Assembly: GCA_951406725.2 (NCBI GenBank)
Contig: OX597839.1
Location: forward strand, 27,156,001-27,220,000
Length of the DNA: 64,000 bases
Reading direction: 5' to 3'
Origin: Octopus vulgaris
Taxonomy: Eukaryota
The notes below the pieces were generated by a model. The model worked only from the letters and a program-made list of their open reading frames with translations, made no database searches and was not told where the DNA came from. Positions 5,831-62,731 of this stretch are shown piece by piece. The position numbers were made by a program, and so were the translations under genes. Numbering within the stretch: the first letter of the stretch is position 1; the number at the start of each line of letters is the position of its first letter.

Positions 5831-6745
5831 AGTAAGAGGTAAACGTTAAACAATAGTGTGAGATATAGATGGAGTGTGAGAGAGGGGTAAAGAAGGGGAG
5901 GTTAATTGATGCGATTCTCTCTCTCTCTCTCTCTCTCCATGTAGTAAACAGATAGAGTCGCAGTGCAGAGGCTGCTGTAAACAGACATTTAAATGGAGAG
6001 ACGAGAGATTCGTGAGAAATACTCCCCATAGTATTTCTTCTCTCATCTGTGCTGCTATCAACTGGCCATCGTCGCCACCTCTTGCGAAAATACAACCCCC
6101 AGTTGTGTTCTTGTTAAAGGACAGGAGATTCTACAGCCATACATGTATTGTATGTATTTGTAAACGTGTGTTTATGTAGGGGTACCGTATATATATATAT
6201 GTGTATATATATGTGTGTATATATATATAGATGTCTGTATATATAAGGGTACGCTTGTTGTTCACCGTCGCATGTTTATCTGTTGAACAGAGACAGTGAT
6301 TGACAGGTCTATGTACACACACATAGATGCACAGAGAAAGAAAACATTACCAAAACGAAATTCTTCGCCTCAAAGACTAGACATCAACAATAATAATAAT
6401 AATTGTTAACATTACTGTTGTTGTTATTATTATTGTTATTATTATTAGCTGTTGTCAATCGAATTTGGAATATTTGGCTTCTTTTAATTGACGTTTAATT
6501 TCTTTAATTGGCAAACGAAAGCGGATTATTAGAATCGCGAATGCAAATGTAAAAAAAAAAACAGAAGAAGAGAAAAATGTTTATCTGAAATAATAAGGAA
6601 GATGTGACGACGATGTGTAGAAGAATGACTCGGATTGGATAAATAACGAAGGTTTTTTTGTAAAATAATTGTAGATAACACGATCAGTGGAGATATTTTT
6701 CATTGAGATCTATCATTGTCTTGGAATAATAACCCCTAAAAATCT

Positions 6746-8170
6746 ATGGCTTCGGATGAGAAGAAACTGTTGTCCGGTGCAAGTTACAAACCGGTTGTGA
6801 ATGACTGCGACAAGTTGTTGGTGGCGAGCAATGGATGCGACGGTTGTATTTCAAATAATCGATGTAATAACATGACGAAAGCGGCCAGTCATTGGTCGTC
6901 GGAACAAAACGGTGCGAGGAGATGTGCTGGCAATTCATCTTATATGGTACCCACTTACCATTCGTTACCCATGGATATCATAAAACGCACCGAATACCCG
7001 CAGCCCTCCTCCACTCCGTGTCGGGGCAACGGTTTAGCTGGGCACCACCACCACCATCATTATCACCACCATCACCACCATCATCTCACCACCAACTCCA
7101 ACATCAACAGCCTCAATAATACTCGTAACCACTCCAATAATAAACAACACAGCGGTTGTCACCCCCAGAAGGTTCACACCGGACCCCAGTACGGGTCGCC
7201 GCCGCCGTCGCTCAAGGACCGTAAAAGCTTCAAAAATGTGTTTGTGATCGGTTTTGCTTTTATGTTCGTCTACACAGCTTTCATGTCCCTTCAGAGTCTT
7301 CAAAGTTCTTTAAACACCGACGGAGGGGTCGGTGTTGTGTCGCTTAGTTGTATGTACGCTTCTACCGTCCTCTCGTGTCTGCTTGCTCCTTGGATTATCA
7401 GTAAACTAAAATGCAAGTGGACCATGGTATCTGCTTTTATTCTCTTTTCTGCTTACTTCGCTGCTAATTTTTACCCTAAACATTTCATGTTAATTCCAGC
7501 GGGCATGATTCTCGGTCTGTTGACCGGACCGTTGTGGAGTGCCCAGGCTACCCTTGTCACGACGATGGGTATTATGCATGCACAAAGAATACACAATTAC
7601 GACACAGATGCCGTCGTTAATAAATTCATGGGCATTTTTTACGCTTTCTACCAGAGTAGCCAAATTTGGGGTAACATAATCACAGCGACAGTTCTCTTTA
7701 ACAACGACACCGTGCAAGCTTATAACCCGGTTGTAGAGGTGTGGCGCAAAGCTGCTACCGCCCTCAACGAATCAACGGCTATATCGGCCTACATTTATTC
7801 GCGCCCTTCCTCGCTATCGTATTCCTCACAGTTCACCTGGAAGAAATGCGGTGCCAAATTCTGCGACCTGCCGTTTGCCGATCCTGGTGCTGAGTACCAC
7901 GACTATAACCCCATCGTGGCCGGAATATCGGACGATTCTCGACACATGCTTCTTGGAGTTTACCTGATTTGCGGCATCATGGGCGCCATCATAATTGTGG
8001 CCCTCCTGGACAAAGAGGGCCACAAGGAAGAGTCCTACGGCAACCTTTCGTCTCGTGAACTCTGCTTGGCCACCGTGCGAATGCTGTGCGACCCCAAATG
8101 CCAGTTGCTAATGCCGCTCGTCCTTTTCCTCGGTTTGCAACAAGGATTTCTTTTCGGAGATTTTACTAAG
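6746..8170 (+). CDS. UNC-93-like MFS membrane protein, first coding exon (475 codons, 3'-partial)
   Basis: ORF carries UNC-93 family motifs: KNVFVIGFAFMFVYTAFMSLQSLQSSLN, ANFYP, GPLWSAQ, FMGIFYAFYQSSQIWGNII, CGAKFC, LLMPL...QQGFLFGDFTK. Family-like sequence stops exactly at AAG|GTAAAC (donor at 8171, phase 0); the ORF tail 8171-8344 is intronic read-through. Confidence 0.92.
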
Positions 8171-8598
8171 GTAAACTCACTTCGTTTCTTCTTTGTTCTT
8201 CCTCTCACTACTACTTCGCCTCTTTTTAACTGTCATTCATTCATTCATTCACCATCGTTCGTTCATTCATTCATACATCCAGCCAGTCTGTCCGTCCGTC
8301 CGACTGTCTGCCAGCCCGCCCGCCAGTCTTGCCAACCTGGCTGACATTCATTCACTTGTTTGTATTTAAAGCTCTTCTTTTCTCGTTTCTTCTTCTTCTT
8401 CTTCTTCTTCTTCTTCTTCTTCTTCTTCTGCTGAAACCGTCGCCAAAGTTAATCGCAGTGATTTCGTTTGTGTGGATATGTGTATGTATGCGTGTGTGTG
8501 TTAAATATGTAAACACAATACAAACATACGTCATGATTCTATATTTAAAGTTACAGCATTTCCAATTACATGTGTGTGTGTGTGTATACAGATATGAT

Positions 8599-11053: not shown

Positions 11054-11252
11054 CTGTAGTGACAACAAGTTGTAAAAGTGGGTTTTACAATCGGTCGATA
11101 ACTGTGTGCGCCTTGGTGGGAATCGGTTTTTACAACCTGTTGATTGCTGTCGGTTTCCAGGTGAAAATCGCGTTTATAACCAGTTAAAACCTCTGGATTT
11201 CTGGATTAAAATGGGTTATGCAACCTGTTGATTTCTAGCCTGTTGATTTCTA

Positions 11253-11379
11253 CAGGGTGTCCACAATGTCTGGGTACATGGAGTAAATAAAATCATAACA
11301 TAAAGAATTAAATATAAGAAATAATAATCTCTTAAAGTATGTGTTAATCCCCATGTACCCAGACCTTGTGGACACCCTG
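11253..11379. mobile_element. Tc1/mariner-type MITE
   Basis: ~29-bp TIRs cagggtgtccacaa.gtctgggtacatgg, TA TSD on both sides. Confidence 0.88.
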
Positions 11380-11560
11380 TAGAATGCTGGTGGTGGTGGG
11401 GGACTCCTAGTTAATTGAGAATTTATCTGTCTGTCTGTCCGTCCGTTCGTCTGTCTGTCTGTCTATGCGTGTATGTATGTATAAATGTATGCACAATGTC
11501 TTAAGGCGATGCTCCAGCATGGCCGCAGTCAAATGACTGAAACAAGTAAAAAATAAAAGA

Positions 11561-11733: not shown

Positions 11734-12011
11734 ATTTCGTTCTTGTATTTGGTTTGCAAGATTGTTGATGTGAATTCGTTGTTGAAATAAATCCTGCTGT
11801 GTCTTGGGAGGGTCATCACGCCCAAAATAACATACGCATCGATTCAATATCACTTCTTTGTTGTTAGTCGATTGGTTAATTATTCATATATATATATATA
11901 TATATACCGGAGTAAACACATAGATGTGAAACAAGGTGGAAAAAAGAGTACTCAAATACCAGTGGTAGAGTAATATGCTTTATTTAAAAGTAGCAGAAAA
12001 TTCAACAAAAC

Positions 12012-12049
12012 CTGTTACTCTGAGTTTCACGTTCCCGTTCGTCAGACAG
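12012..12049 (-). ncRNA. Minimal type I hammerhead ribozyme, intact core
   Basis: Minus strand reads ctgt CTGACGA acg ggaa cgt GAAA ctc a gag TA acag: stem I ctgt/acag, stem II with GNRA loop, short stem III, GUA site. Confidence 0.8.
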
Positions 12050-12064
12050 TTTTTGCTAGAAAAA

Positions 12065-12102
12065 CTGTCCGACGAACGGGAACGTGAAACTCAGAGTAAC
12101 AG
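12065..12102 (+). ncRNA. Inverted copy of the same hammerhead with core variant CCGACGA
   Basis: ctgt CCGACGA acg ggaa cgt GAAA ctc a gag TA acag; right arm of the 11973-12141 inverted repeat. Confidence 0.7.
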
Positions 12103-12135
12103 GTTTTGTTGAATTTTCTGCTGCTTTTAAATAAA

Positions 12136-12213
<78 letters not shown>

Positions 12214-39224: not shown

Positions 39225-40196
39225 CTTTTACTCTTTTACTTGTTTCAGTCTGCGGCCATGCTGGAGCACCACCTTTAGTCTAGCAAATCGACCCCGGGAC
39301 TTATTCTTTGTAAGCCCAGTACTTATTCTATCGGTCTCATTTGCCGAACCACTAAGTGACGGGGACGTAAACACACCAGCATCGGTTGTCAAGCAATGCT
39401 AGGGAGACAAACACAGACACACAAACGCAGTGGGACTGAACCCGGAACCATGTGGTTGGTAAGCAAGCTACTTACCACACAGCCACTCCTGCGCCTATGT
39501 ATCATTTTAACTAACCTGAATTTTGTTTATACCTAAACAGTGCTTGGCGCTAACATTTCGTTATTTCCCTCGCTCGGTCGATCTACCAGCGCAAATCAGT
39601 CAATATTGTTGACTGAATTTTACATGAAGCTGTTGCTTTATAAGTTTGTTCAGAGTTGCCGCTCTTGAATACATCCCATTGACAAGAGTCAGAAAATCCG
39701 AAACGTCGATGTCTGGGATTCTTTCTCCACGATAAATGTAATGCATCACAAACATATTATAACTAACCTAAATTTTGCACATATATATATATATATGTAG
39801 GCGCAGGAGTTGCTGTGTGGTAAGTAGCTTGTTTACCAACCACATGGTTCCGGGTTCAGTCCCACTGTGTGGCACCTTGGGCAAGTGTCTTCTACTATAG
39901 CCTTGGGCGCCAACCAAAGCCTTGTGAGTGGATTTGGTAGACGGAAACTGAAAGAAGCCCGTCGTATATATGTATATATATATGCGTTTGTGTGTTTGTG
40001 TTTGTCCCCTAGCATTGCTTGACAACCGATGCTGGTGTGTTTACGTCCCCGTTACCTGGCGGTTCGGCAAAAGAGACCGATATAATAAGTACTTGGCTTA
40101 CAAAAGAAAAAGTCCCGGGATCGAGTTGCTCGATTAAAGGCGGTGCTCCAGCATGGCCACAGTCAAATGACTGAAACAAGTAAAAGAGTAAAAAGA

Positions 40197-40232
<36 letters not shown>

Positions 40233-40407
40233 TTCTTTTATTTGTTTCACTCATTTGACTGCGACCGTGATGGTGCACCGCCTTTAGTCGGGCAAATCGA
40301 CCCCAGAACTTATTCTTTGTAAGCCGATTACTTATTCTATCGGTTTCTCTTTTGCCGAACCGCTAAGTTACGGGGACGTAAACACACCACCATCAGATGT
40401 TGGGGAA

Positions 40408-61054: not shown

Positions 61055-61882
61055 ATTTATATACCATATTCACATATATATATATAGACACATATAAATG
61101 TGTGCATATATATGTATATTTATATACATACATACAGATAGATGGATAAACAAACAGTAAAGTATATATATATATATATATATACATATATATACACACA
61201 CACACACACACATACGCATACAGAGATAGATAGATATTCATACAAACACACACACGTGTGAATATATGCATGATGGTGGTGGTGGTGGTGGTGGTGGTGG
61301 TAGAGTAGAGGAAGAGAGAGAGAGAGAGAGAGAGAAAGGCGGTGGTTGTACTTTTAAATAGGTCAATCGGTTTCACATTTGATGTCTGATATTACATCAG
61401 GTTGTAGGAGGGAGACGAGGAAGAGAAGGGAGAGGAGACAGGAGACAAGGGGGGGAATCTGGAGAAAGACACAGGAGAAGAGGAGGAGGAGAGGGAGAGG
61501 TGGGAAAAAAAAAAGTAAAATTGGTGGCAGGAGGAGACTAAAGGCAGAATAGGGAATAAATGACAGAGGCGGGGGGGGGGGGGCTGTATAAGAAGGCAGG
61601 TGGCGGTAGAGGAAAGGGGAGCCAGAAGGTATAGAGAAGGATGAGGACAAAATGTGAAGAATAGAGAAAGGATGGTGGTGGTGGTGGTGGTGAGAGTTAT
61701 AAGAACAGGTATTGTCGGGGTGGGGGTAGAATAGAGGGCAGAGCGTGGGGAAGGAAGGCAGAAGGATAGAAAGAGGTGAGAGAAGCGAATGGTATATATA
61801 CATATATATATATATATACCGGAGTAAACACATAAATGTGAAACAAGGTGGAAAAAAAGAGTACTCAAATACCAGTGGTAGA

Positions 61883-61921
<39 letters not shown>

Positions 61922-62223: not shown

Positions 62224-62731
62224 GGACACAGAAATAAACAGAGAGAGAAAATAAAAAAAAAGGTTTAGTGATGCCCCAACATGGCCACAGTCTAATGACT
62301 GGAACAAGTAAAAGATACACACACACACACACACGCACACACACACACACACATGCACACACACACACATACATACAGGTGAGTACATAAGTGCAAAACA
62401 AGGTGGCAAAAATAGTACTCAAATACCAAAGGTAGGGTAATTTGCCTTTATTAAACCTGCAAAATTCTTTTCTACTCTAGGCACAAGACCCGACATTTTG
62501 GGTCAAAAGGGGTCAATTAAGCCTGCAAAGTTACTACAAAAACTGTTGCTCAGATTGCATGTGTCCGTCCGTTCGTCCAGACAGTTTTGATGAAAACTCT
62601 CAGTTACAGCTTTGAGATAATTTTGCTGCTTTAGTAAAAGTATTTATATATTTTTTTCTACAGAATTAGGATAAAATCATTATTTAATGATTTATCAGTG
62701 GCCAGCATAGTAAAAATGCCATAATGGTTAA

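Follow-up and report, generated by a model that had tools for sequence, protein, structure and literature searches.

The palindrome at positions 11907 to 12141 of the window, by which we mean the whole 64,000-nt stretch of Octopus vulgaris DNA analysed here (contig OX597839.1, positions 27,156,001 to 27,220,000), belongs to a population of about 1,650 short insertions, arranged head to head, of a Penelope-like element (PLE). We consider it likely that the locus is a short head-to-head insertion of the leader of a Hydra-type PLE, generated in a single event by two RT reactions on both cut ends of a (TA)n target. The palindrome is a PLE insertion by-product of a known type rather than a new ribozyme switch, and as a single locus it is ordinary; head-to-head pLTRs with a one-sided tail and opposite-strand hammerhead pairs in Schistosoma have already been published. 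What is added here is the population, namely thousands of minimal, datable insertion products together with intact ORFs. This population makes the choice between two cDNAs and self-priming testable, and it provides a natural series in which the U4C and U4 forms of one ribozyme can be compared. Both how PLE inverted insertions form and what PLE hammerheads do are named as open questions in the relevant passages of recent reports (PMC8557442; PMC11167929).

The palindrome consists of two inverted arms of 82 nt each (11973-12054 and 12060-12141), which are 96% complementary and separated by a 5-nt gap. This gap, placed by inverted-repeat alignment at 12055-12059, forms the apex, or arm junction. 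As the first-pass annotation had stated, the palindrome is embedded in (TA)n: both arms lie in such sequence, with target tracts at 11886-11906 on the left and 12137-12181 on the right (the tracts, like the apex, carry no strand assignment). The arms differ at three positions, 11977/12137, 11991 and the hammerhead core base 12044/12070 (the U4 position). The first of these marks the end of the short arm and the onset of (TA)n, so that the true arm homology is 77 nt with 2 mismatches. The tailed arm, on the minus strand, occupies 11978-12061 and extends 8 nt upstream of stem I; it is followed by a PLE tail of about 70 nt (11907-11977, minus strand) that runs from the short end to the long end, with 11907 as the putative second RT start site. 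The tail-less arm (12060-12136, plus strand) stops at the short end, the 12136 side being the putative first RT start site. At the junction (locus L001), the tailed arm runs 8 nt and the tail-less arm 1 nt beyond stem I, with an overlap of 2 nt. Target-site duplication at this locus is masked by (TA)n, whereas a copy inserted into non-TA sequence (L053) has a 13-bp duplication. The left flank of the palindrome had been reported to recur elsewhere in the window. Recurrence was indeed found, at 61819-61890 (95.8% over 72 nt) and at 62385-62455 (83%), but the supposed flank, 11907-11977, is the element's own tail. Given that the long arm continues as leader, tail and ATG in full copies, we regard the long arm as the 5′ leader, or pLTR end, of a PLE; in full elements, the tail continues 70 nt further to the ORF start.

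Each arm carries a candidate minimal type I hammerhead, at 12007-12053 on the minus strand and at 12061-12107 on the plus strand. The motif comprises stem I, a C(U/C)GACGA core, a short stem II with a GNRA loop, GAAA, a palindromic ACUC-N-GAGU stem III and a GUA cut site, and cuts are predicted after GUA at 12016 and 12098, respectively. The minus-arm core (CTGACGA, beginning at 12045) matches C3 U4 G5 A6 N7 G8 A9 ... G12 A13 A14, whereas the plus-arm core (CCGACGA, beginning at 12069) and those of subfamilies B to D carry U4C. The assignment to the hammerhead class rests on motif and anatomy; Rfam scans of the window palindrome returned no hammerhead and only microsatellite-driven miRNA matches. 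The hammerhead fold of a lone arm was predicted at -2.3 kcal/mol and was not the MFE (the MFEs were -8.3 and -7.0), and pairing of stem III with a second copy was predicted at -7.4. The earlier proposal that each arm encodes a hammerhead thus fits the motif, stems I and II, the palindromic stem III and the UH cut site, but it gains nothing from Rfam or from the lone-arm MFE. Hammerhead variants described by Lunse et al. may include the architecture of this family. For minimal PLE hammerheads, monomers have been described as inactive and dimers as weak (PMC4209133), and for this reason no cleavage by a lone minimal hammerhead would be expected. Accordingly, the suggestion that the hairpin silences cleavage is not sustained: there would be little to silence, and arms on opposite strands cannot dimerise in cis.

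A genome search with the 235-bp element gave 1,678 candidates, of which 40 were scored; each of the 40 spanned nearly the whole element at 92-100%, although this set was picked by likeness to the query. A back-to-back stem I pattern (within 25 nt) occurred at no fewer than 1,667 places genome-wide, compared with 17 for the reversed control, and an exact 29-mer of the arm occurred at 8,278 places or more. The first-pass annotation had proposed asking how often the family is inverted, and these counts show that the window copy is not a one-off. Thirty loci were located by means of the ORF start, and in about half of them the order was promoter-like region, pLTR hammerhead, short end, tail, 70 nt and ATG. 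Of 14 fetched loci, 7 contained open frames of 726-727 codons, eight in all, that encode RT motifs and, towards the C-terminus, GIY-YIG motifs. The parent ORF, of 711 aa, carries YRDD and GVVY..Y.G motifs, which are present in parent copies and absent from the stub. Searches of Pfam and PDB with this ORF returned no hit. The parent protein contains RWK, DKT, a CxCX5C linker (the second C of which is F in many copies) and CxxC and CxH motifs, and CCHH is absent. Partial tandems with the pLTR upstream of the ORF were seen at L299, L303 and L306-L309, the tandem unit being 3.4 kb, and most family copies viewed were inserted in (TA)n. The marks of an EN+ PLE seen were therefore one ORF with RT and GIY-YIG, a partial-tandem pLTR, a tail at one end and an inverted 5′-truncated copy. 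Its motifs, together with a visual comparison with published Hydra proteins, identify the parent as a GIY-YIG PLE with Hydra-clade marks. The Neptune clade, our first guess, was dropped; the protein motifs fit Hydra. The notion of a Penelope-like inverted end is well borne out, in that the family has a PLE tail, a pLTR and the head-to-head layout, and its parents have an RT and GIY-YIG ORF. Loci L299, L303 and L305-L309 contain intact PLE ORFs of 710-711 aa, belong to the youngest subfamily, and include direct and inverted partial tandems; the intact ORFs suggest that the youngest-subfamily PLE was active very recently. At L050/L051 (C1:215346138-215346484), the upstream sequence of head-to-head arms was unlike the PLE promoter region, and this locus is possibly a non-autonomous derivative or a captured flank.

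The two core variants had been taken for one intact and one mutated ribozyme, and the family reverses this reading. Cores that end in UGAAAC were found at 2,789 places, and the first 100 listed comprised 74 CCGA, 13 CTGA, 11 CCAA and 2 other; likewise, the 60 cores of 30 window-like loci included 40 CCGA, 8 CCAA and 7 CTGA. CCGA is thus the core of the subfamily. Because CTGA and CCAA are the two symmetric outcomes of CpG decay of CCGA, the CUGACGA of the window's minus arm is most likely a decayed CCGACGA. Of the first 100 cores listed for subfamily A (3,725 places), by contrast, 99 were CTGA (U4). Arm-to-arm divergence was 1.0% in subfamily A (25 loci), 1.8% in B (5), 2.2% in C (2) and 7.5% in the older group (9), and the 28 window-like copies of C type had a mean arm divergence of 4.1%. 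CCGA predominates among the cores of B, C and the older group, whereas A, the youngest by arm divergence, has CUGA fixed; from these sequences, the U4C core appears to have been long maintained and later reverted. Lower in vitro activity has been reported for U4C, yet this variant persists in a viroid (PMC3088659). Hammerhead stem pairs were retained in 75-82 of 82 arms, with the exception of 10.1-11.1, which was paired in 19 of 82. Changes between subfamilies fell mostly at unpaired sites (N7, loop II, the centre of loop III and the stem I bulge; post hoc p 0.003), and there were almost no compensatory stem changes. In the youngest subfamily, A (e.g. L099 and L164), CUGA has been regained and the 10.1-11.1 pair lost (A.A), leaving a 2-bp stem II.

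The layout of the palindromes was then characterised in 49 position-ordered examples on contig C1 (50 were fetched, and one tandem duplicate was dropped). One tailed and one tail-less arm were found in 42 of the 49, none had two tails, and 7 were broken or rearranged. There were 32 distinct junction types, most joins having either an overlap of 1-4 nt or filler, and the apex belonged to the tailed arm in 14, to the tail-less arm in 14 and equally to both in 16 (5 were unclear). The one-tail rule is not absolute, as 2 of 8 long inverted pairs (3-5 kb) had two short ends (L296 and L302). Among the first 100 of the 8,278 arms by position, 58 lay in 29 head-to-head pairs, 23 of which were at most 160 nt apart and the others 0.3-4.2 kb; the single tail-to-tail neighbour in this set sits between two separate palindromes. 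Arm divergence was 3.2% within loci compared with 9.3% between loci, a difference reached in 0 of 10,000 permutations (41 loci of four subfamilies, with 8 excluded as rearranged). The two arms of window-like loci were concordant at the T-run in 27 of 30 loci, and at the subfamily-diagnostic loop base in 20 of 22. Hammerhead-cleaved RNA was not supported as the template. Matches compatible with a start at the hammerhead cut numbered 43, compared with 8,278 arms; about half of 30 inspected were small deletions, and arms did not pile up at the cut site. From the near-absence of cut-site starts, it follows that uncleaved RNA is the usual template, in agreement with the finding that cleavage is dispensable for insertion in vitro (PMC11167929).

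In short palindromes, 79 of 88 arms stopped no more than 9 nt upstream of stem I, a limit that also applied to 22 of 23 close pairs. A CCAAT motif lies 71 nt upstream, and the 9-nt limit coincides with an Inr-like ATT; we take the CCAAT box and the Inr-like site to be promoter motifs. From the pile-up of arm ends, we infer that the apex corresponds to the RNA 5′ end, the promoter start probably lying immediately 5′ of stem I. When arm stops were inspected for a cap G, a G preceded 7 of 20, several of which were ambiguous. Of the first 100 listed arms that reach the putative start, 89 run on upstream, as expected of 3′ pLTR copies. PLE pLTRs have been described as containing a promoter (PMC2377424; PMC3846280).

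Taken together, the one-sided tail in 42 of 49 palindromes, the 32 junctions and the 14:14 division of apex ownership favour two joined cDNAs over either fold-back or copying as a unit. Under the preferred reading, the target (TA)n would be cut on both strands, and each cut end would prime a separate cDNA, one starting at the short end and the other about 70 nt further, at the tail end. Both cDNAs would run to, or near, the RNA 5′ end and would be joined head to head by 1-4 nt of microhomology or by filler. The hammerhead would then be a passenger, read only through host read-through and predicted to be buried in the hairpin. The evidence consists of finished insertions, from which we infer the coupling of two primings within one insertion. 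A PLE protein has been reported to nick and extend both strands and to start RT at two internal, tail-bounding sites with no requirement for hammerhead cleavage, and it is predicted to be dimeric (PMC11167929). In the literature covered, in which subscription papers are thinly represented, we found no prior twin-priming account of PLE palindromes and no U4C PLE hammerhead.

The mirror arm could instead derive from self-priming, or fold-back, of one cDNA, or from an antisense template, a route put forward for the Penelope elements of rotifers, and palindromic junctions were interpreted as self-priming by Arkhipova 2013 (PMC3846280). The window's own junction, a perfect 5-nt-loop hairpin, is equally compatible with such a snap-back; moreover, apex palindromes are common (a symmetric 8-mer was present in 8 of 49) and arms are nearly always concordant. 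However, the tail-less arm was the longer in 14 of 28 asymmetric junctions, which is impossible for a copy of a tail-primed cDNA, and the tail could not have been templated from a tail-less first strand. Fold-back also does not account for L037, L112 and L195, in which two complete arms are separated by filler, or for the 2 of 22 loci discordant at the subfamily-diagnostic loop base, as a fold-back copy could not have been so at insertion. Even though later arm recombination that flips the spacer could mimic the 14:14 split, we regard this origin as unlikely. We judge it quite improbable that the palindrome is a non-autonomous element that multiplied as a whole from a single master palindrome or a small number of them. 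The near-complete span of all 40 scored matches and the presence of the window's junction type in 24 of 30 window-like loci would agree with unit copying, but these loci were selected for likeness to the query, and the position-ordered copies vary in their junctions as described above. Furthermore, both arms change together across four subfamilies, no arm-specific differences are fixed, and the stub has neither a promoter-like region nor an ORF. An assembly artefact has a negligible probability. PLE inverted repeats have been described as problematic in short-read assemblies (PMC8557442), and no public contig crosses the whole stretch; nevertheless, the two arms are not identical (2 mismatches, and a tail on one side), the flanks are unique, junctions vary by locus, and another copy, L053, has the 13-bp duplication.

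A further rival, that the host retains the window copy as a regulatory hairpin (a ribozyme off-switch, or an ADAR or Dicer substrate), has to be considered in light of the host gene. The plus strand carries an UNC-93-like coding exon at 6740-8170, upstream of the palindrome. Contigs from 2 of 4 runs, representing two studies, depart from the genome at 8170 and resume at an exon 69,178 bp downstream, defining a GT-AG intron. This next exon (L256:4349-4617) was found through the spliced contig end; paralogue and motif searches had not found it. Hence the palindrome is within a 69,178-bp intron of a spliced, plus-strand UNC-93-like gene. The gene (PF05978) has a long first coding exon with a His-rich N-terminus, and this exon has two paralogues, on C1 and C6, with the same end point. 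Host transcription passes through the CCGA arm in sense, not the CUGA arm, and the antisense arm comes first in the pre-mRNA. Given this intronic position, the pre-mRNA is expected to form a hairpin. The predicted fold of the whole element is -134 kcal/mol (z -23.9; shuffle mean -41; 0 of 200 shuffles equally stable or better). As the first-pass annotation had anticipated, the hairpin is predicted to bury the hammerhead in read-through of either strand, the mean probabilities of core pairing with the upstream arm being 0.97 and 1.0; the value of 0.97 applies to the CCGA arm in host pre-mRNA. It is plausible from such modelling that dsRNA arises from host pre-mRNA. No run recorded as RNA was listed as containing the stretch; contigs over the palindrome pool the whole PLE family and span no full copy, and their differences also occur in DNA-type runs. 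The intronic location in a spliced gene and the predicted duplex of about 80 bp speak for a retained hairpin. On the other hand, an arm divergence of 2/77 is ordinary for the subfamily when set against the mean of its 28 like copies, and the window copy is one among about 1,650 such apexes, so that host retention is highly improbable.

The family resembles several described systems. In common with the C-terminal-EN PLEs of the Hydra clade (Craig et al. 2021, PMC8557442), it has RWK, DKT, the CxCX5C linker, no CCHH in the GIY-YIG core, CxxC/CxH around the last E and N, (TA)n targeting and a pLTR hammerhead. Two published Hydra sequences have the same ACUC-N-GAGUA-ACAG hammerhead end (PMC8557442 supplement). 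In contrast, the Hydra hammerheads in that supplement have a CUGA core whereas three older subfamilies here have U4C, and the tail is about 70 nt rather than 30-40, with a tandem unit of 3.4 kb. Short motifs of the window family were not found when that supplement was inspected by eye. Hydra-1_Obim, also compared by eye, resembles the window family but is a distinct element, with a different hammerhead and N-terminus. The inverted 5′-truncated copy at the 5′ end and the tail on one pLTR are shared with the elements of Arkhipova et al. 2013 (PMC3846280; Craig 2021 Fig. 2), as are the palindromic junction and TATA/Inr-like pLTR motifs. Unlike those, most pairs here consist of leader only and occur in thousands, and their junction statistics favour two cDNAs over self-priming. 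Poseidon PAc (Frangieh et al. 2024, PMC11167929) shares the two tail-bounding RT starts, the nicking and extension of both strands and the dispensable cleavage; it belongs to a different clade, and the proposal that its two sites correspond to the opposing arms of a single inverted insertion is ours. Minimal type I PLE hammerheads (Cervera and De la Pena 2014, PMC4209133) share a short palindromic helix III that needs a dimer and an extra base before helix II, but the window family has a stem II of 2 firm pairs plus a GNRA loop, no G10.1-C11.1 pair, and a U4C core. In Schistosoma, opposite-strand hammerhead motif pairs occur 100-700 bp apart (PMC4209133). Animal non-LTR retrozymes (bioRxiv 10.64898/2026.07.22.740005) are likewise non-coding, PLE-derived and hammerhead-bearing. 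They are tandem same-strand repeats, however, whereas the window holds a head-to-head pair with arms on opposite strands, no tandem same-strand hammerheads and no sign of unit copying.

A wider proposal, possible but doubtful, is that dual priming is the normal PLE route: a dimeric RNP would carry two leader RNAs paired via the palindromic stem III and would prime a cDNA at each of the two start sites, and the hammerhead would be kept mainly as a pairing module. If this were true, the pairing-module role would explain how a weakened U4C core survived three successful subfamilies, and thousands of intronic hairpins would serve as Alu-like dsRNA for ADAR in this genome.

Other repeats were also present in the window. 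A 5′-truncated, tail-only fragment of the same PLE family lies in (TA)n at 61819-61885 on the minus strand, as identified by sequence match. Tail-only insertions of this kind were rejected as a hotspot: there were 5,367 tail matches, and among the first 100 listed none ended there into a TA tract. The copy at about 62.4 kb, previously described as a diverged flank match with a decayed ribozyme, is diverged and decayed, but it is more than a flank match: it is itself an older-subfamily head-to-head PLE insertion (62369-62660, no strand assigned). There, 62369-62588 is a tailed antisense arm with an internal insert, and 62594-62660 is a tail-less sense arm starting at GAAA. An unrelated inverted repeat of 34 nt, 97% complementary with its copies 69 nt apart, was seen at 11248-11384 and has the look of a small MITE-type element. 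Finally, two facing copies of a common SINE-like repeat lie across a TA tract at 40102-40318 and form a hairpin of about 200 nt.
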